64,000 nt of DNA, taken from NCBI GenBank assembly GCA_041661505.1, contig JBAZUF010000005.1, positions 3,532 to 67,531 of the forward strand, written 5' to 3'. This stretch comes from Patescibacteria group bacterium. Its GTDB lineage: Bacteria; Patescibacteriota; Patescibacteriia; Patescibacteriales; JBAZCA01. The notes under the pieces are model-generated. The model was not told the DNA's origin. It saw only the letters and a program-made list of their open reading frames with translations, and did no database searches. Shown here piece by piece: positions 3,098 to 58,040 of this stretch. Each line of letters starts with the position of its first letter. Positions within the stretch are counted from its first letter, which is position 1. Both the position numbers and the translations under genes were made by a program.

Positions 3098-4447
3098 TCA
3101 CTTCTTGGGCTCATCTTCAGCCACCGGAACCATCATGTACAAATAGCTGTCCCTTCCCGGCTCACCGCCAAAAACCGGCTTGATAATGCCTGACCGCCCG
3201 GAAGGGTCGGGCGATACTTCGACCGGATCGGAAAACATGGTGTCTACTTTTTGCTTTATCTCGTCCGCCTGCTCTTTGCTTTTATAGGGAACCACTACGG
3301 CGCCAGACTCCTCTTTTTTTTCTGATAATTTTTCCGGCGCCAGACTTTCTTTGAACTCAACCGGATTGATTAGTTCGAGAAAAGAAAGATAAATATTCTT
3401 TCCGCCGTTAAACGCCCAGCCGGCCAGGCGCCGATATTCGCTCCTGAAATAATCTCCGGCCTGGCAGGCTTCTTCTTCGATTTCATTTTCTTTGGCAATA
3501 AAAATTTCCGGATTCCAGAATGATTTTTTTTCGGCGAATATTTTTTCGCCGGCTACCGCTTGGCGGGCTTCTATTCCAACTGGCGGATTTTCCGGCTGGC
3601 CGAAGACTCCGTATTTAATAATTTTAGAAATTTTTATATAGGGGTAAAGGTAAGCCGGGGCCATGGCTTTTGCCAGATGGCCGGACAAAACCGGCGCCGA
3701 AGTGGCCAGGATGTAAGCCGCGTAAACCGCCAGAACGGACGCAAGGCTTAAGCGGCCGGCAAGGCTCTTAGGTAAAATTTTCAGTAAAACCGATTTTCTT
3801 TTTTTCCTGGCTTTAGACTTTACCGCCGCCTGCGCCTCCGCGCCGCCGGTTAAAATTTTTGAGGCGATCTTGTCCGACAAATCATCTAGATCAATCGCTC
3901 CGGCCGAAGCTTGTCCCGAGCCGCGAATTCCGGAAACTCCGGGCTGGTTTCCCGGAGCGCTGGCGATAGCGGACGGGACATTAAAACCAGGGGCCAATTC
4001 CCCGCCGATTCCGGCTTGAGGAAAAAGAGCTATGGCAGTTGATTTTAATACCCGGTCCTGGGAGTGGTTTTTTAAATATTCGCCAAACCATTCGCGGGTG
4101 GAAAAATAATTTCTACCGATCTTTTTAGCCTTCAGTTTTTTCCTTTGAACCAGGTTGGATAAATAAGCCAGGTTATAGGGGCCCTCTTTGGCAAACTGGC
4201 GCAAAGGCAGAAGCTCGCGGTTAATCGGTTCGACTTCCGCTTTCTCGGAAGGATCCATTCTTCCGTGCTTTTCCAGGTACTCGGAAAACCACTGGCGCGA
4301 AGAAAAATAATTCCGGCCAATCTTCTTGGCTTTGAGCTTCTTTCGCTGAACCAGGTTCGACAAATAGGCGAGCGTATAAGGCCCGTCTTTAGCGAAGCTT
4401 CTTAGGGGTAAAAGTTTTCGATTTTCGGACAATTGGCCGGCGTTCAT
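3098..4447 (-). CDS. single-pass membrane protein with two tandem N-terminal excisionase/MerR-type HTH domains
   Basis: Residues 10-61 and 77-128 are a near-identical duplication: LLPLR.FAK.GPY.LAYLSNLVQRKKLKAKKIGRNYFS.R.WF.EYL. This fits the ..A.....S...v..lv..GkL.a.KiGR.w.......eyl pattern of HTH_17-type domains. An Ala/Gly-rich linker, a KKRK stop-transfer, a TM helix (LSLASVLAVYAAYILATSAPVL) and a ~200-aa C-terminal domain follow. Confidence 0.7.
   Translation of the reverse strand: MNAGQLSENRKLLPLRSFAKDGPYTLAYLSNLVQRKKLKAKKIGRNYFSSRQWFSEYLEKHGRMDPSEKAEVEPINRELLPLRQFAKEGPYNLAYLSNLVQRKKLKAKKIGRNYFSTREWFGEYLKNHSQDRVLKSTAIALFPQAGIGGELAPGFNVPSAIASAPGNQPGVSGIRGSGQASAGAIDLDDLSDKIASKILTGGAEAQAAVKSKARKKRKSVLLKILPKSLAGRLSLASVLAVYAAYILATSAPVLSGHLAKAMAPAYLYPYIKISKIIKYGVFGQPENPPVGIEARQAVAGEKIFAEKKSFWNPEIFIAKENEIEEEACQAGDYFRSEYRRLAGWAFNGGKNIYLSFLELINPVEFKESLAPEKLSEKKEESGAVVVPYKSKEQADEIKQKVDTMFSDPVEVSPDPSGRSGIIKPVFGGEPGRDSYLYMMVPVAEDEPKK
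4064..4420 (-). repeat. intragenic tandem duplication (2 x ~156 nt, period 201 nt) encoding the two HTH domains
   Basis: The protein repeats R10-H61 and R77-H128 differ at only a few positions. The DNA copies are clearly related but carry many synonymous differences. Confidence 0.8.
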
Positions 4448-11501: not shown

Positions 11502-11996
11502 TTACCCGGCGGCCGCGAAGGCGCGAATCGCGCCCTTGGCCGTCTCCAGGAGGCTGGACGGCTTCACATCCAAGCTGTAGCCGATAACGCAAAGAGTGAT
11601 GGCCGCCGCCCAGTACACTTTGGTGGCACTCACTTCAGCGTTGCCGATGACAGTCTGGAGTACAAAAAATGCTACCAGACTCCCGGCGCCGACGATGGCG
11701 CTCACCGTCCTTGGGTCAGTGCCGAGCGAAACGGCCTCGTACTGCGCCGCATTTCCGACGTAGCAGAAAGCTGCGGCCAGGAGAAAAGGTACGATACAGC
11801 CGGCAAAATCATAATCAAATACCGGATTCACGAATTTGCCGAAAAAAAATTTCAGAGCCCAAAAGGTTCCCATCATGCCCAGCGTATCGCCCACCGGAAT
11901 TCCTTTGCGGGTCAAATAGCACATAACTATGCCCATTCCCGCGTAGGAAAGCGCCGAGGCGATGCTTAACCCCTTGCCGATTCCTATGATTTCCAC
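11502..11996 (-). CDS. small integral membrane protein, family not recognised
   Basis: 164 aa with 4-5 hydrophobic helices. The GTG start at 11996 is preceded by a strong SD (CCGGAGGGAGAGGAAAC-GTG). The sequence looks more GC-rich than its neighbours by eye. Confidence 0.7.
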   Translation of the reverse strand: MEIIGIGKGLSIASALSYAGMGIVMCYLTRKGIPVGDTLGMMGTFWALKFFFGKFVNPVFDYDFAGCIVPFLLAAAFCYVGNAAQYEAVSLGTDPRTVSAIVGAGSLVAFFVLQTVIGNAEVSATKVYWAAAITLCVIGYSLDVKPSSLLETAKGAIRAFAAAG

Positions 11997-18626: not shown

Positions 18627-19199
18627 CTAGCTCCGCCTGATTTTTATGTCATAATCAATCTGCTCGATTTTTCTTAAATTAGTTTTGGCCTGGTCGTATT
18701 TGGTGCGCAGGTAGCCGGTCATGTCAAATAATACCAGCTCGGCCATTATTTCATTAATTACTCCCTTAATTTTGTCCACTTCATCCATCTGCCCCCGGGA
18801 AGCCTTATTAATCGCCAGACGCACCATCTCGCCGGTAAGATCGCAAATCCCGCCCAGATAGCTTTCAGTATCGATTTTCACTTTGGCCACTTTATCGATT
18901 TTCTTTCCGGACATTACATAGAAAAACATTTTGGCTTCAACGTATTCCTCCATGCCCGCCTTAAAAGACCCTTCTTCGTAGAGCCGGCTATGCCCGAATT
19001 TTTTATCAAGATAGGCTAATTTTTCCTCGATTTCTTTTAAGGAAACTTCGGCGATCGATAAATCATTCCGGTGCAAAGAAAAAATGACTCTCTTTGAATC
19101 ATGCAAAACCTGGTTTGATAAGCTGATAATTTGCCTCCGCTCACCCTCATGCTTGTCATAATCAGCTTTCAGCTGTTTGATAAATTTTTTGTTTAACAT
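18627..19199 (-). CDS. translin-family protein (COG2178-type)
   Basis: 190 aa, all-helical. YLGGICDLTGEMVRLAI matches the translin/TRAX ..YL.G.ADLTGEL.R.. motif. The C-terminus LRTKYDQAKTNLRKIEQIDYDI parallels human translin LRKRYDGLKYDVKKVEEVVYDL. Confidence 0.6.
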   Translation of the reverse strand: MLNKKFIKQLKADYDKHEGERRQIISLSNQVLHDSKRVIFSLHRNDLSIAEVSLKEIEEKLAYLDKKFGHSRLYEEGSFKAGMEEYVEAKMFFYVMSGKKIDKVAKVKIDTESYLGGICDLTGEMVRLAINKASRGQMDEVDKIKGVINEIMAELVLFDMTGYLRTKYDQAKTNLRKIEQIDYDIKIRRS

Positions 19200-21059: not shown

Positions 21060-22286
21060 TTATACCAGAATTTTCAGCAAAAAAGTAGATATTTTTTTCA
21101 AAACCCAAGCCAGTCCTAAAAATACAATCAGGTAGAAAACAGCCGCCAGCCAGGCCGGTAAATATCTATAAAAAAGGTCATAGCGGCTGGCGAGCGGCCA
21201 GTGCAGAAGATAAACTTCATAAGAATACAGGCCGAACAAAGAAAGCAAATTGAATTCAACTCTTATATAAGAAAAAAGAAGGACGATAGCCAGCACGACA
21301 ATTATGCTAACGAGCTGTTCTTTGTCCGGACTTTGGCCCACGCCGGAATTAAGGGCAAAATAGCCGATAAATATTACCAAAACGGCAATTATTAAATAAT
21401 ATATGGCCGGACCGATTTTTTCTTCTAATTTCAAAACGCCGGGTTTTCCCGCCCAAGCTGATAATTTTTCCAGCCCGAAAAGACGCGAGAATCGGAATCG
21501 GCCCAGCCCGGGCGCCCCGTAAGCCAGCCAGCCGAAAAAAATTCCTGCTGGAAAAGCAATTATGTGAATCTCGTACAGATGCCTTACCTCGCTCATCCAA
21601 ACAGGGTTTTCGCGCAGGATAAAATAAGCGGCCAGATAAATTATGATGGCCGACAGCCAGGGCCTTTTTTTTGATAAAACCCAGGGAAAAATTAAATAGT
21701 AGAATAAAATTAAAGTAAAATACCAAAGGGGCGAATTCAAATCCTCAAATACGTCGGCGCGCGGGAAAAATCCGGCCGCGGCCTTAAAGATATACTGCCA
21801 AGAGTAAGTGATTTTTAATATTAAAAAGTCTAAGATAAAGTACAGCGCTAATATTATCCATAAAGGCATAAATAACTTCGGCAGGCGCCGGCGGTAGAAT
21901 TTCCAAATCGCCAATCCGTCCCGCTCTTTTTTTATCGCCCCGCCTTGCCCGTCCAAAGCGGCTAAACCTTTTGCCTCTTTTAATTCGTTAGAATCCTTTT
22001 TTAAGGCGCTTTGGGTGAGGCCGAAGCCGGATAAAAATAAAAACAGATCTACCCCGACTCCGGCAAGGATTGAAAGCGGAAACAGGAAGCGGTGATCGGC
22101 AATCAAAAAATAGCCGAAATGGGAAAAAATTATAGTTAAAATCGCTAAGCCTTTAAGCTCTTGGGTGAGTGATTTAGGAAGGAAGCGGGTGGATTTTTTC
22201 ATCCGGGCGGAAACTAAAACAGCCGCCAAAAAAATAGCGGCAAAGATCCAGGTAGCCTGAACCGGATTATTTATCGAAATAGCCAT
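21060..22286 (-). CDS. acyltransferase family 3 (OafA-like) membrane protein
   Basis: 408 aa with 10 or more TM helices. The opening ..LKGLAILTIIFSHFGYF.. (conserved His) and the overall topology are typical of acyltransferase_3. Confidence 0.7.
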   Translation of the reverse strand: MAISINNPVQATWIFAAIFLAAVLVSARMKKSTRFLPKSLTQELKGLAILTIIFSHFGYFLIADHRFLFPLSILAGVGVDLFLFLSGFGLTQSALKKDSNELKEAKGLAALDGQGGAIKKERDGLAIWKFYRRRLPKLFMPLWIILALYFILDFLILKITYSWQYIFKAAAGFFPRADVFEDLNSPLWYFTLILFYYLIFPWVLSKKRPWLSAIIIYLAAYFILRENPVWMSEVRHLYEIHIIAFPAGIFFGWLAYGAPGLGRFRFSRLFGLEKLSAWAGKPGVLKLEEKIGPAIYYLIIAVLVIFIGYFALNSGVGQSPDKEQLVSIIVVLAIVLLFSYIRVEFNLLSLFGLYSYEVYLLHWPLASRYDLFYRYLPAWLAAVFYLIVFLGLAWVLKKISTFLLKILV

Positions 22287-23022
22287 AAATTATCTTCGCC
22301 CAGATCGCGTACCCTTCGGCTGAAGGATGGAATAAGTCCGGCGAGTAATGGGCGCCATTCGTTTTGAATTGGGCCGCGGTCGGAGAATATAAATCAATGT
22401 ATTGGGCTTTGTAAGTTTCGGCCAAAGCCTTGATAACCGAGTTAAACTTTTTGGTTTGCCAATCAATATATAAATTGTATGGCGGCATCATCAAGCTCGG
22501 GGCGCCGATAAAGGGAATGCTGACCAGGTAAATTTTAGCATCAGTTTCTTCGGTAAGGCGCTTTAATATCGCCCCGTAGCTATTTTTGAATTCAGCCAGG
22601 GAAACTTTGCCATGCACGTCGTTAACGCCGGCCAGGATTGTAATGATATCCGGGTTATCAGCTATGGCCGCCGAAACTAATTTATCTTTTAAATCACCGA
22701 CTTTGGCACCGGGGATTGAATGATCTTTCAAGGTTACCTTTTTGCCGTCCTGCGCCATTTTCCCGGCTATGAGATAAGGAAAGGATTCCTCGTAATTTAA
22801 AACCCCGACTCCGGCAGTCAAGCTGTCGCCCAAGGCGGCGTACACTATATTTTTTTGAAAATCCATATCAGCGCCGATTAGAAAGGTTTGGTTTTTATCA
22901 GGTGATTTCAGGTTTGCCTTGCTGATTTCCTGGTAGATGCGGGCATGAAAATAATATAAATAAATTCCAGCCGCAAGAATGGCCAATAAACTAGCCAGTA
23001 AGTACTTCTTTTTCATACCCAT
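22267..23022 (-). CDS. SGNH/GDSL-family hydrolase (lipase/esterase/acylhydrolase)
   Basis: Block I AALGDSLTAGVG, block III LAGVNDV and block V DLFHPSAEGY. N-terminal signal anchor. The start is at 23022 or 23016; the track start 23061 adds a non-homologous extension that ends 13 nt short of the tRNA. Confidence 0.85.
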   Translation of the reverse strand: MGMKKKYLLASLLAILAAGIYLYYFHARIYQEISKANLKSPDKNQTFLIGADMDFQKNIVYAALGDSLTAGVGVLNYEESFPYLIAGKMAQDGKKVTLKDHSIPGAKVGDLKDKLVSAAIADNPDIITILAGVNDVHGKVSLAEFKNSYGAILKRLTEETDAKIYLVSIPFIGAPSLMMPPYNLYIDWQTKKFNSVIKALAETYKAQYIDLYSPTAAQFKTNGAHYSPDLFHPSAEGYAIWAKIIYGYFDK

Positions 23023-23073
23023 GATTAAACAAAAATTTCGCCAAAGTGCGCCAGAGCGCACATGTCCATCAAT

Positions 23074-23146
23074 GTCGGGGTGCCGGGAATTGAACCCGGA
23101 TTACACGAACCCGAATCGTGCGTAATACCGTTATACCACACCCCGA
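23074..23146 (-). tRNA. tRNA-Pro (anticodon CGG)
   Basis: The minus strand reads TCGGGGTG TGGTATAACGGTATTACG CACGA-TTCGGGT-TCGTG TAATC CGGGTTCAATTCCCGG CACCCCGA(C). It has a 7-bp acceptor stem, D arm, 5-bp anticodon stem with loop UUCGGGU (anticodon CGG), and a T arm with GGTTCAATTCC. CCA is not encoded. Confidence 0.9.
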
Positions 23147-23237
23147 TATAAAATAAGGCAGGCCGGAAATTTGCCTACTCATATATTTAAGCACGCGAAA
23201 GCCAAGCTGGCAAGGCTAGCTTCTCCCGCCCCCCCCA

Positions 23238-23275
23238 AAGAAAAAAGCCCTTATCGCTTGAAGTGCGGTAAGGGC
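23238..23275 (-). terminator. rho-independent terminator after the sigma-XRE gene
   Basis: The minus strand reads GCCCTTACCGC-ACTTCAA-GCGATAAGGGC (7 bp + 1 mismatch + 3 bp) followed by TTTTTTCTTT. Confidence 0.65.
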
Positions 23276-23322
23276 CGGTGTTTTAATTAATGGTGTTATA
23301 TCTCCTTTGTCTTTCGGCGTGA

Positions 23323-24477
23323 TCAATAATAACTCACGCCGGCCAGTTCGTAAAAATCGCTCTTGGCTTCGCGTGTCAGTCGGAACACTTTAGCTAGACG
23401 CCTCACAGTGTTCGGGGGAGGAACTCGTTTTTCTAGCTCAGCCCTATAGACGCAAAACCGGGTGCATTCGGCCCGCTTGGCCAGTTCGAGTTGCGACCAG
23501 CCTTTTTCGAGGCGGAGCTCTTTTAGTCTTCGGCCGAAAGTCATAGGTTGCGCCGAGCGGGGGGTGGTGTTGCCGTTTTGAGGAGACGTGGGGGGAAGGA
23601 TGATGAGCAGAGGAGAAATCTGCGGGGACGTTTTTACCGGCTTGCCATTCTGAAAACTAGAGGCGATTTTTTTCGCCTCACCCACTGACGCTACGTATTT
23701 ACCTAAGTAATCTTTATTGCAAGCGTCAGGCAAGTCTTCGGGTTTCATTTGTTGGCGTAGATATTTCCTCGCACGAAGGACTGCCTTAGTGTGGATCAGC
23801 GAGATCATGGATTCGGAATAGCCAAGAACAACGCCAATTTCCTTCATGGTCAGTTCTTCGTAATAGTAAAGAGTAAGTACGGTTTGCTCTTTTTCCGGGA
23901 GTCGGCCAATGGCCTCGGTAAGATGATAAGCAATCTCTTTCCTAAAAACCGCGTTAAAATGCTCCTCCTCTCCAACCGCAAGCATATATATTTCGCGATT
24001 TCCCCGGATTACTTCACTGATATTTTCCGGGAGGAAAGAGATCCCCTTAATTTCATCCATCAGCTTGAAAAAATCCTCCTCGCTGATCTGGAGTTCCTCT
24101 GCAATCTCCTCCTCCGTGGGGTCGCGCCCAAACCTTTGTTCCAAGGAAGCGCATGCTCTTTCCAGCATGCCGCTTTTTCTTCTAAGCGAGCGGGGCACCC
24201 AATCCATAGCGCGGATTTCGTCGAGCATCGCCCCCCGGATCCGGATTTTAGCGTAAAAGTTAAAAGGAACGCCCTCGCTGGAATCATATTTATTGAGAGC
24301 GTCCATGAGCCCCAGCACTCCAGCGCTAATAAGGTCGCCGACCGAGATGTGGTCAGGCAGTCGGGAGATGAGCCGCAGGGCGATGAATTTCACCATGTCA
24401 GCGTGTTTCAGCATCATCTCGTTCCGTTCGTTAAGATTTGAATACATTCTTTCTTTACCGTTGCCATTACCGTCCAT
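23323..24477 (-). CDS. group-3 (FliA/WhiG/sigma-28-type) RNA polymerase sigma factor fused to a C-terminal XRE-family HTH domain
   Basis: Residues ~20-245 form the sigma part. Region 2 is DLISAGVLGLMDALNKYD..FYAKIRIRGAMLDEIR, region 3 follows, and region 4 is LPEKEQTVLTLYYYEELTMKEIGVVLGYSESMISLIHTKAVLRARKYL. A ~60-aa Pro/Ser-rich linker leads to FGRRLKELRLEKGWSQLELAKRAECTRFCVYRAELEKRVPPPNTVRRLAKVF, an XRE/Cro-type HTH. There is a strong SD (GAAAGGAGGTGGCGC-ATG) and the gene has its own terminator. Confidence 0.8.
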   Translation of the reverse strand: MDGNGNGKERMYSNLNERNEMMLKHADMVKFIALRLISRLPDHISVGDLISAGVLGLMDALNKYDSSEGVPFNFYAKIRIRGAMLDEIRAMDWVPRSLRRKSGMLERACASLEQRFGRDPTEEEIAEELQISEEDFFKLMDEIKGISFLPENISEVIRGNREIYMLAVGEEEHFNAVFRKEIAYHLTEAIGRLPEKEQTVLTLYYYEELTMKEIGVVLGYSESMISLIHTKAVLRARKYLRQQMKPEDLPDACNKDYLGKYVASVGEAKKIASSFQNGKPVKTSPQISPLLIILPPTSPQNGNTTPRSAQPMTFGRRLKELRLEKGWSQLELAKRAECTRFCVYRAELEKRVPPPNTVRRLAKVFRLTREAKSDFYELAGVSYY

Positions 24478-24611
24478 GCGCCACCTCCTTTCCGAAGGCC
24501 TGATATTGCGTTAGCGGAAAATTCTTCCGTGATTTTTAAAAGATCGTATATAAAAAATTTCCAAAGAATGGAAATTTGATGCCCTTATAAAAAGCGCCCG
24601 CGCGTGCCAGA

Positions 24612-50605: not shown

Positions 50606-51019
50606 ATGAACAACAAAATTTTAATTTCCGCGGTTATTATCGTGATAATTATTGTTGGCGGGCTGGCCTATATCTATAGCCAGCCGACAAATGACGCCGC
50701 GAATAACCCGCCCTCTAATTCGACGGATAACACCGGTGGAAATGTCCAAAAAGTAACAGTGTCAGGAACTGACTTTAGATTCTCGCCCAGTGAAATCAGG
50801 GTTAAGAACGGCCAGCAGGTAAAGATAACCTTTACCAACAACGGACAATTTCCGCACGACTGGAAAGTTGATGAGTTCAGCGCAGTTACCCCGACGGCCC
50901 AGCCGGGAGAAACAACGGAAGTAACTTTCACGCCTAACCAAACCGGAACCTTCCAGTATTATTGCGCCGTTCCCGGCCATAAAGATAGGGGCATGGTCGG
51001 AAATTTTATAGTAGAATAA
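50606..51019 (+). CDS. membrane-anchored cupredoxin (plastocyanin/azurin-like type-1 copper protein)
   Basis: N-terminal TM helix. Type-1 Cu ligand pattern: His in FPHDW, then YYCAVPGHKDRGMVGNF (Cys-x4-His-x4-Met). Confidence 0.8.
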   Translation: MNNKILISAVIIVIIIVGGLAYIYSQPTNDAANNPPSNSTDNTGGNVQKVTVSGTDFRFSPSEIRVKNGQQVKITFTNNGQFPHDWKVDEFSAVTPTAQPGETTEVTFTPNQTGTFQYYCAVPGHKDRGMVGNFIVE

Positions 51020-57335: not shown

Positions 57336-57920
57336 TCATAATTTAATATCCTGCCTCAATAATTCTTTTTTAAATTCCAATTTTGCCTTATTTAAAAGCG
57401 ACCCGACGGTTCCGATTGGTTTTTTCAAAATATCGGAGATTTCAGCGTAGCTTTTTTCCTCCAAAAATTTTAAAACCAGCGCCACGCGGTATTTTTCGTT
57501 TAGGCCATCCAGTATTTTTTCAATATTGTCTTTTATAATCTTATTGTCCATATCTTTCTTCAAGTCAAATTCAGAAACCAGCCTTTGCGCGATTTCATCC
57601 GAAAGCGGGTAAGAATAGCCTTCGGCCCGGGCTTTCAATTTTCGATGGCTGGAAATTACCTGGTTTCTTGCGATCATATAAATCCAGGACGAAAATTTTA
57701 AATCGGCGTCAAAGCCATTTAGATTCAAGTAAACTTTAAAAAAAATGTCCTGGAGCAGATCCTCGGCGTCCTCATCCGGCACATTGGTTATACGCTTGAT
57801 AAAATTAAAAATTTTCAGCTTGTATCTTTGAATGAGGTATAAAAAATTCTCCTGGTTTTCTAAGGACCGGATTACCAGCTCTTCGTCAGTTAACTTGCCA
57901 GCTTGTTCTAAATCCAGCAT
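57336..57920 (-). CDS. ECF-type sigma-70 family RNA polymerase sigma factor
   Basis: Region 2 is FLYLIQRYKLKIFNFIKR...AEDLLQDIFFKVY...F..WIYMIARN. Region 4 is EKYRVALVLKFLEEKSYAEISDILKKPIGTVGSLLNKAK. I prefer the start at ATG 57920 over the track start 58007. Confidence 0.88.
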   Translation of the reverse strand: MLDLEQAGKLTDEELVIRSLENQENFLYLIQRYKLKIFNFIKRITNVPDEDAEDLLQDIFFKVYLNLNGFDADLKFSSWIYMIARNQVISSHRKLKARAEGYSYPLSDEIAQRLVSEFDLKKDMDNKIIKDNIEKILDGLNEKYRVALVLKFLEEKSYAEISDILKKPIGTVGSLLNKAKLEFKKELLRQDIKL

Positions 57921-58040
57921 AAGCTCTTTATAATATAATACGGATGGCCAGGCTATTTTCTTCAATCTAGCGCCTTGCGGGCTATTTGGCAATCTAGTCT
58001 TTCCCAAGCGCTTATATTACATAGAGGGCTTGGCTTGACT

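Follow-up and report, generated by a model that had tools for sequence, protein, structure and literature searches.

The 64,000-nucleotide stretch of DNA analysed here (hereafter the window) covers positions 3,532 to 67,531 of the forward strand of contig JBAZUF010000005.1 in the Patescibacteria assembly GCA_041661505.1, and encodes on its minus strand (23323..24477) a protein in which a sigma-28-type sigma factor is joined through a linker to a C-terminal helix-turn-helix (HTH) module of the XRE family. The reading frame runs for 384 codons from an ATG start to a TGA stop (23323-23325) with no internal stop, and this sigma-XRE frame is the only long open reading frame (ORF) in the interval. 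The gene product is a true FliA/WhiG-family (sigma-28) sigma factor of group 3, with the NCBIfam model TIGR02479 (FliA_WhiG) scoring 227.9 bits against a cut-off of 189.6 over amino acids (aa) 22-240, aligned to profile positions 2-223 of 224, and the FliA model PRK06986 scoring 218.6 against a cut-off of 201. The core delimited in this way (23758..24414, minus strand) consists of region 2 (Sigma70_r2, aa 23-93, 24199-24411), region 3 (Sigma70_r3, aa 103-142, 24052-24171) and region 4 (Sigma70_r4, aa 189-236, 23758-23922), all on the minus strand and without a region 1.1, and it matches the solved sigma-28 structures of E. coli (6PMI) and Aquifex (1RP3) and that of WhiG (6PFV) with E-values of 1e-40 to 1e-50. 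The presence of region 3, together with the FliA/WhiG identity of the best models, places the protein in group 3 and not among the extracytoplasmic function (ECF, group 4) sigma factors, which lack region 3. An original prediction for this locus had described the 384-codon frame and sigma regions 2-4 of the FliA/WhiG group, and both are borne out by the intact ORF and by the Pfam and TIGR02479 scores.

The linker (aa 251-311; 23545..23727, minus strand) has a second half rich in Pro, Ser and Thr that contains the hydrophobic stretch PLLIILPP, and is followed by the C-terminal XRE (Cro/C1-type) HTH module (aa 312-384; 23326..23544, minus strand), which begins at an in-frame ATG (M312) and ends in FYELAGVSYY. 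This C-terminal half belongs to the XRE HTH family, matching HTH_31 (PF13560) over aa 314-370 with 44.0 bits (cut-off 27) and HTH_3 (PF01381) over aa 318-368 with 32.8 bits (cut-off 23). Every Pfam domain match on the fusion protein exceeds its gathering score; the profile check of Sigma70_r2/r3/r4 and HTH_3/HTH_31 that the original prediction had proposed therefore supports both parts, as well as its description of a linker of about 60 aa leading into a Cro/C1-type HTH. In an AlphaFold2 model of the full protein, regions sigma-2 and sigma-4 reached a predicted local distance difference test (pLDDT) score of 85-95 and the XRE domain 73-88, with the linker (aa 256-313) below 50 and hence predicted to be disordered. 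The whole-protein predicted template modelling (pTM) score was 0.31, with no confident packing between domains, a weak test given that the alignment contained no more than three fused sequences; small XRE proteins were left out of it, as MAFFT had placed them on the sigma part. Modelled alone, the XRE module gave a pLDDT of 89 and a pTM of 0.76 and is predicted to adopt a five-helix, lambda-repressor-like fold, with Foldseek neighbours in the PDB (C.BclI, DdrO, ImmR, SinR, C.AhdI, P22 c2 and 434 Cro) at query-normalised TM-scores of 0.6-0.73.

The fused frame was also found in three other independent assemblies of the same species (L009, L010 and L011), whose protein (P0001) differs by one residue, and an orthologue of 363 aa and 49% identity (P0006), present in three samples, has the same sigma-linker-XRE layout and ends in FFQLAGVDYYK. 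The recurrence of the frame in these assemblies and in P0006 shows that the fusion is not an artefact. Among the related Patescibacteria loci compared, the fused state occurs in the window and its same-species loci L009-L011 as well as in L001. In L006, the closest relative, with a sigma factor 75% identical, sigma and XRE are two ORFs with overlapping stop and start codons (ATGA), and this split form is set apart from the fused one by an indel of 2 bp directly ahead of the XRE ATG (approximately 23545-23556 in the window). The split form was read from a single 1.3-kb contig (L006 850-870, equal to L013), where a sequencing error is possible. In L004, the sigma factor (P0110) stops after region 4 and no XRE remnant precedes the tRNA. 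At the other extreme, the internal start codon is replaced by GTC in P0006, which can thus be made in the fused form only. The original prediction had noted that orthologues with two genes would point to an assembly error behind the fusion. Such orthologues exist in part (L006 with two ORFs, L004 with no XRE) and reflect natural variation, with the assembly of the window not at fault.

Neither the length nor the sequence of the linker is conserved between the window protein and P0006. A short hydrophobic stretch flanked by proline is present in both linkers (PLLIILPP at 23590-23625, aa 285-296, in the window protein; APVLVLVP in P0006) and may be a short linear motif. The XRE module has homologues in L006, P0006 and P0142, with features beyond those of a generic XRE domain, namely an invariant Cys and the C-terminal sequence FYxLAGVxYY. 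Pattern scans of GTDB genomes and JGI metagenomes recovered the combination of sigma and XRE in this clade only, and an exhaustive HMMER search with the XRE module returned P0142 as the sole close full-length match. A profile search with four XRE modules yielded generic 69-aa XRE proteins only and missed P0001 and P0006 even though these contain query sequences verbatim, and is hence uninformative. P0142 (L097 5001-6422, 473 aa) carries the XRE module at its C-terminus behind a Pro-rich linker and ends in FYEAAGVSYY; its N-terminal 390 aa have no Pfam match, and its gene is divergent from an hrcA-grpE-HSP20-dnaK cluster.

The gene is preceded by the Shine-Dalgarno (SD) sequence AGGAGG (24484-24489, minus strand), 6 nt upstream of the ATG, and is followed by an intrinsic terminator (23237..23275, minus strand) formed by a hairpin (23247-23275) with an 11-bp G+C-rich stem and then UUUUUUCUUU. 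Its downstream neighbour, in L001-L004 as in the window, is tRNA-Pro(CGG) (23074-23145, minus strand). The ideal SD, the gene's own terminator and the adjacency to tRNA-Pro had all been anticipated. When the 20 nt upstream of each of the 61 window genes were inspected, AGGAGG was found at the sigma-XRE gene only; 53 of the 61 lack any SD-like 4-mer and have A/T-rich tracts before their start codons. The leader AAGGAGG is kept in all four Patescibacteria loci and is absent upstream of the donor fliA genes discussed below. The 134-bp region upstream of the gene contains a perfect palindrome, AAATTTCCA-N5-TGGAAATTT (24555..24577, no strand assigned), which is located 78-100 bp before the start codon of the sigma gene and overlaps a weak sigma-70-like -35 element and spacer. 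It occurs once in the window and elsewhere only in the same-species loci L009 and L010, and is a candidate autoregulatory operator.

The best 120 database matches of the protein are nearly all FliA proteins of about 280 aa with 55-75% identity, of which the named ones belong to Syntrophobacteraceae. The nearest unfused relative with genomic context, P0003 on contig L007 (69-72% protein identity over the window core), is encoded in a fliN-fliOPQR-flhB-flhA-flhF-flhG-fliA cluster, and its protein cluster includes a Syntrophobacter sp. protein. The recipient genomes carry the depositor label Patescibacteria and have a GC content of about 46%, compared with 55-58% for the donor contigs. The core of regions 2-4, which nests within flagellar-cluster fliA genes, was thus acquired horizontally by a non-flagellated Patescibacteria lineage from flagellated Desulfobacterota of the Syntrophobacteraceae type.

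Comparison of the sister genomes L001 and L004 points to repeated replacement of this core. Over 691 bp, the L001 core shares 93.2% nucleotide identity with the fliA gene (P0081) of L095, a contig that carries a flagellar cluster and encodes an FlhA most similar to those of Syntrophobacteraceae, but only 76% with the syntenic gene of L004, whose own core is 86% identical to the donor-type fliA of L093. Synonymous divergence (dS) follows the same pattern, with values for the sigma core of 0.22 between L001 and L095, 0.57 between L004 and L093 and 1.37 between L001 and L004, against 0.77-1.3 between L001 and L004 for the flanking genes (LepA, RecJ, PilB, RNase H and Translin). A bootstrapped neighbour-joining tree built on 226 codons supported the groupings (L001, L095) and (window, L006, L007) with 100% each and (L001, L004) with 0%. 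Identity falls sharply outside nt 64-754 of the gene, a core of about 690 bp, and the N-terminus LRxRRPxEVAE and the upstream DNA are private to L001 and L004. In these sister genomes, the core alone was overwritten by different donor fliA alleles after speciation, with the short N-terminus, the SD leader and the XRE module being resident; on the simplest reading, this is how a gene looks that had been domesticated before incoming donor fliA DNA replaced its homologous core more than once. On the same simplest reading, the lineage of the window and L006 carries an older version of the core or one from an unsampled donor. The core junctions recur in three samples, and the L001 branch has accumulated 17 non-synonymous and 15 synonymous changes of its own (donor branch, 6 and 5); this recurrence and the non-synonymous excess of the L001 branch make a chimeric assembly unlikely. 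The L004 core (P0110, 10058-10743) is itself a mosaic, with a 5' part 91-95% identical to L095-type fliA and a 3' part up to 98% identical to L093-type fliA, which points to at least two recombination events or to a donor that was itself recombinant. Taken jointly, the identity of the gene, its fusion, the donor of its core and the recurrent replacement are conclusions that we hold with high confidence.

The composition of the gene is consistent with such an origin in some respects only. Its GC content of 0.502 (gene mean 0.458, z 1.25) is not an outlier, contrary to the original prediction that it would exceed that of its neighbours. The sigma-XRE region deviates most strongly in its tetranucleotides (rank 1-2 among 210 windows, z of about 3), and the gene has the worst codon-usage fit among window genes of at least 100 aa (z -1.95), so that the proposed compositional check failed for GC and succeeded for tetranucleotides and codon usage. 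Together, k-mers, codon usage, the unique SD and the phylogeny support the view that the sigma-XRE gene is foreign to the window genome. Of the horizontal or phage origin previously suggested, it is therefore the horizontal part that stands, and no phage relative of the fusion was found. The gene order LepA - RecJ - RNase H (rnhA) - sigma - tRNA-Pro - PilB - Translin is kept in L001-L004, in which the flanking housekeeping proteins are 60-88% identical to those of the window, and this conserved order argues that the sigma gene is not a recent insertion in the window genome. The earlier picture of a self-contained islet inserted by a tRNA gene was accordingly abandoned, given the order rnhA - sigma - tRNA-Pro - pilB in relatives and the lack of integrase and attachment (att) sites.

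Two mobile-element origins were considered and rejected. No phage or plasmid record covered at least 80% of the fusion protein, and the best phage matches were 39% identical and restricted to the sigma part, which argues against a phage or plasmid origin. A tRNA-associated island or prophage remnant was dismissed on the grounds that no integrase was found near the sigma gene among the window ORFs (Pfam), no att-like or tRNA-derived direct repeats were found at the locus, and the sigma-tRNA pair is syntenic in L001-L004. The variable segment at this locus lies instead on the 3' side of the tRNA, where genes for an SGNH/GDSL hydrolase and an Acyl_transf_3 acyltransferase (21060-23061, minus strand) stand between tRNA-Pro and pilB in the window; this segment is missing from the syntenic L001-L004 and had no att repeats. 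Directly downstream of the PilB-like ATPase is a gene for a Translin-family protein (PF01997, 91.8 bits; 18627-19199, minus strand), whose position is kept in L001-L004.

Both parts of the protein show evidence of selective constraint. When the window is compared with L006, the ratio of non-synonymous to synonymous substitution rates (dN/dS) amounts to 0.14 in the sigma core and 0.29 in the XRE module; for the XRE module, the comparison with L001 gives 0.2. The corresponding values between donors are approximately 0.04-0.06. These values indicate purifying selection on both parts, less tight than in the flagellated donors. The window protein keeps 84 of the 93 alignment columns in which donors show conservation of 95% or more. 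In the E. coli sigma-28 complex, the -10 element is contacted by R34, R84, R94 and R95, while just two residues, R220 among them, contact the -35 element, and a K208A-R220A double substitution lowers transcription (bioRxiv 10.1101/2020.01.02.893370); R220W reduces flagellar transcription in vivo (PMC5072838). The four -10-contact arginines are retained in the window protein as R39, R89, R99 and R100. The region 4.2 recognition helix has diverged through the window-specific substitutions R224M and Q227L (23797..23808, minus strand), at columns occupied by Arg in 116 of 117 and by Gln in 115 of 117 aligned FliA sequences. Both substitutions are unique to the window protein, which is the sole exception at the Arg column among the 117 sequences. 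As M224 aligns with E. coli R220, and K212, the equivalent of E. coli K208, is kept, only one of the two -35 contact residues (K208 and R220) is conserved.

The best explanation of the locus as a whole, which we place just short of an even chance, is that of a borrowed and overwritten sigma core combined with an XRE DNA anchor. The sigma half would bind the Patescibacterial core RNA polymerase and read a sigma-28-type -10 element, and the tethered XRE HTH would bind an operator located close to the -35 position or further upstream, so that the holoenzyme would be anchored at, and restricted to, promoters bearing that operator. Lambda cI and C-proteins activate transcription via sigma region 4 (for example PDB 1RIO), and the tether would be a hard-wired version of this contact between XRE activators (of the lambda cI, P22 c2 and C-protein type) and sigma region 4. 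When not bound to polymerase, the fusion protein would sit on the operator and repress, one probable site being the palindrome that precedes its own gene. Dependence on the XRE anchor would be strongest in the window protein, since it has lost the invariant Arg and Gln of region 4.2. The sigma-28 / -35 interaction is intrinsically weak (bioRxiv 10.1101/2020.01.02.893370), and we infer that an anchor would fit this weak contact, the lost Arg, the DNA-binding fold, the disordered linker and the unique upstream palindrome. As a mechanism, anchoring is proposed tentatively, its probability being well short of even.

A number of observations weigh against this proposal. Searches for target promoters and operators covered about 64 kb of the window genome and about 100 kb in all, and no TAAA-N15-GCCGATAA or relaxed site was intergenic in the window or the related loci; matches to TAAA-N14-16-GCCGATA and relaxed forms in the window and fetched loci were all intragenic or on the wrong strand. 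Words resembling GCCGATAA were in excess (176 against 89 expected) and strand-biased, putatively as a result of codon usage. The conserved neighbour pilB has a sigma-70 extended -10 promoter in L001. No second copy of the palindrome was found in the approximately 100 kb examined, and thus no regulon is visible there, nor did the upstream regions of the window, L001 and L004 align between sub-clades to reveal a conserved operator. L004 does without the XRE module and L006 encodes it in an ORF of its own, from which it follows that the tether is not essential for sigma function across the clade. P0006, although likewise fused, retains the Arg and Gln of region 4.2. The pTM of 0.31 leaves the domain arrangement speaking neither for nor against docking. 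The flagellar and chemotaxis regulon that is a hallmark of the FliA/WhiG family is also missing from the 64-kb window, where no flagellar or chemotaxis Pfam family was found among the approximately 60 ORFs scanned, in agreement with the original prediction.

Three other explanations were weighed against the anchor. If sigma and XRE were simply concatenated, the XRE protein would be an ordinary autorepressor of a two-gene operon whose frames were fused by a 2-bp indel with little mechanistic consequence. The position of the indel, directly upstream of an XRE ATG that is retained in frame as M312, agrees with this, as do the unconserved and disordered linker, the palindrome upstream of the operon and the occurrence of fused, split and absent states among close relatives. 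The fusion has nevertheless been kept in two lineages that are 47-58% identical, with P0006 having lost the internal start and making the fused product only, and both parts are under purifying selection; we regard concatenation as rather unlikely. Alternatively, the gene would be a non-functional passenger, a resident fliA fragment repeatedly converted through homologous recombination with DNA taken up from neighbours and unused as a sigma factor. Recurrent core replacement, a dN/dS of 0.14-0.29 as against 0.04-0.06 between donors, changes at otherwise invariant positions and the lack of target promoters in the window and related loci would all be expected of a passenger, but every lineage has preserved intact ORFs even though synonymous sites are saturated, dN/dS lies well under 1, the strong SD and the terminator are conserved, and the 84 of 93 highly conserved columns that are kept include the -10-contact arginines, making this the least probable of the three and very unlikely in our view.

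The XRE module could also be a built-in or partner anti-sigma factor that binds sigma-2 or sigma-4 and keeps sigma-28 inactive until a signal arrives, a role that would be called for since the recipient, lacking an apparatus for flagellar export, could not rid itself of FlgM. No FlgM-like Pfam family was found in the window, the ATGA overlap in L006 implies co-expressed partners, a flexible linker would allow the XRE module to fold back, and its invariant Cys and FYxLAGVxYY go beyond a generic XRE domain. Under Rosetta-stone logic, the fusion of translationally coupled products would further imply that they interact. The original prediction had itself raised both an anti-sigma or autoinhibitory role and tethering to an operator. 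AlphaFold2 gave no confident docking (pTM 0.31), although with three fused sequences in the alignment this is a weak test; the nearest structural neighbours are all DNA-binding regulators, L004 retains the sigma factor without any XRE, and in P0142 the same module is joined to an unrelated N-terminal region. We therefore consider an anti-sigma role unlikely, and the DNA anchor on a borrowed sigma core remains our preferred reading.

Several further genes of the window deserve mention. A second alternative sigma factor, of the ECF type (57336-58007, minus strand; 223 aa, Sigma70_r2 and Sigma70_r4_2), has a GC content of 0.379, the lowest in the window. The highest GC content (0.56, z of about 2.9) is that of two ORFs with no Pfam match (11502-11996 and 2239-2931, both minus strand), of which the former has a GGAGG-type SD and a GTG start; both may be further foreign genes. 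This Patescibacteria genome also encodes a cupredoxin/plastocyanin-like protein (50606-51019, plus strand) and a Cu-oxidase_4 protein (laccase-like, PF02578; 44035-44736, minus strand).

The repeated overwriting of the gene by Syntrophobacteraceae fliA alleles is unusual and well supported. The hosts or partners of most Patescibacteria are unknown, and the 93% nucleotide match of the core to Syntrophobacteraceae fliA, with independent replacements, in sister lineages, is a testable lead to physical association that may point to the partners of these uncultured bacteria. The match equally hints that DNA from a partner is still being taken up and recombined. A broader proposal, which we put forward as speculation and consider doubtful, is that the core is continually overwritten by fliA DNA from Syntrophobacteraceae cells on or beside which these Patescibacteria live, such that its sequence would be a running record of host or partner identity, and that the sigma-XRE chimera is a new class of one-polypeptide sigma-plus-activator that would make a FlgM-less sigma-28 usable without flagella. 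If true, a group-3 sigma factor that reads DNA with an additional, tethered head would be a new way to build promoter specificity and a natural covalent version of the contact between an activator and sigma-4, for which the series of fused, split and absent forms provides ready-made natural controls. In practical terms, 'FliA' calls in non-flagellated metagenome-assembled genomes need not mean contamination.

Literature searches turned up no account of a fusion between sigma-28 and XRE, nor any of FliA in Patescibacteria. The closest known proteins are the Syntrophobacteraceae FliA proteins (P0003 in L007 and P0081 in L095), which share the family, the region 2-4 architecture and the -10-contact arginines with the window protein. 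The latter differs from them in its N-terminus, its strong SD, about 135 extra C-terminal residues with the XRE HTH, the lack of the region 4.2 Arg and Gln and the absence of flagellar genes from the window. Streptomyces WhiG and Chlamydia sigma-28 are likewise FliA/WhiG sigma factors acting outside flagellar regulation, and the WhiG-RsiG structures 6PFV and 6PFJ are the top PDB sequence matches. WhiG and Chlamydia sigma-28, by comparison, are vertically inherited and unfused, with separate partners (RsiG with cyclic di-GMP), and are not known to carry an XRE domain. If the XRE module inhibits the sigma factor, it would fill the same regulatory niche as FlgM (sigma-28 control), with which it has no similarity in sequence or fold, FlgM being intrinsically disordered and secreted and the XRE module a folded HTH. 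Extra domains are known from group-4 sigma factors, as in ECF41, ECF42 and others, in which SnoaL-like, TPR or Cys-rich sensor extensions contact the sigma core (Casas-Pastor et al. 2021, PMC7826278). With the ECF41/42 type, the window protein has in common an additional domain after region 4, in the manner of a 'one-component' sigma factor; it differs in being a group-3 sigma factor and in carrying a second DNA-binding HTH on a disordered tether. The XRE module has the same five-helix fold as lambda cI, P22 c2, C.AhdI and C.BclI. XRE-type activators such as lambda cI, P22 c2 and the C-proteins bind beside the -35 element and work through sigma-4. The known contact of these activators is non-covalent and made with sigma-70, whereas here the HTH is predicted to be attached covalently to the sigma-4 of a sigma-28 factor.

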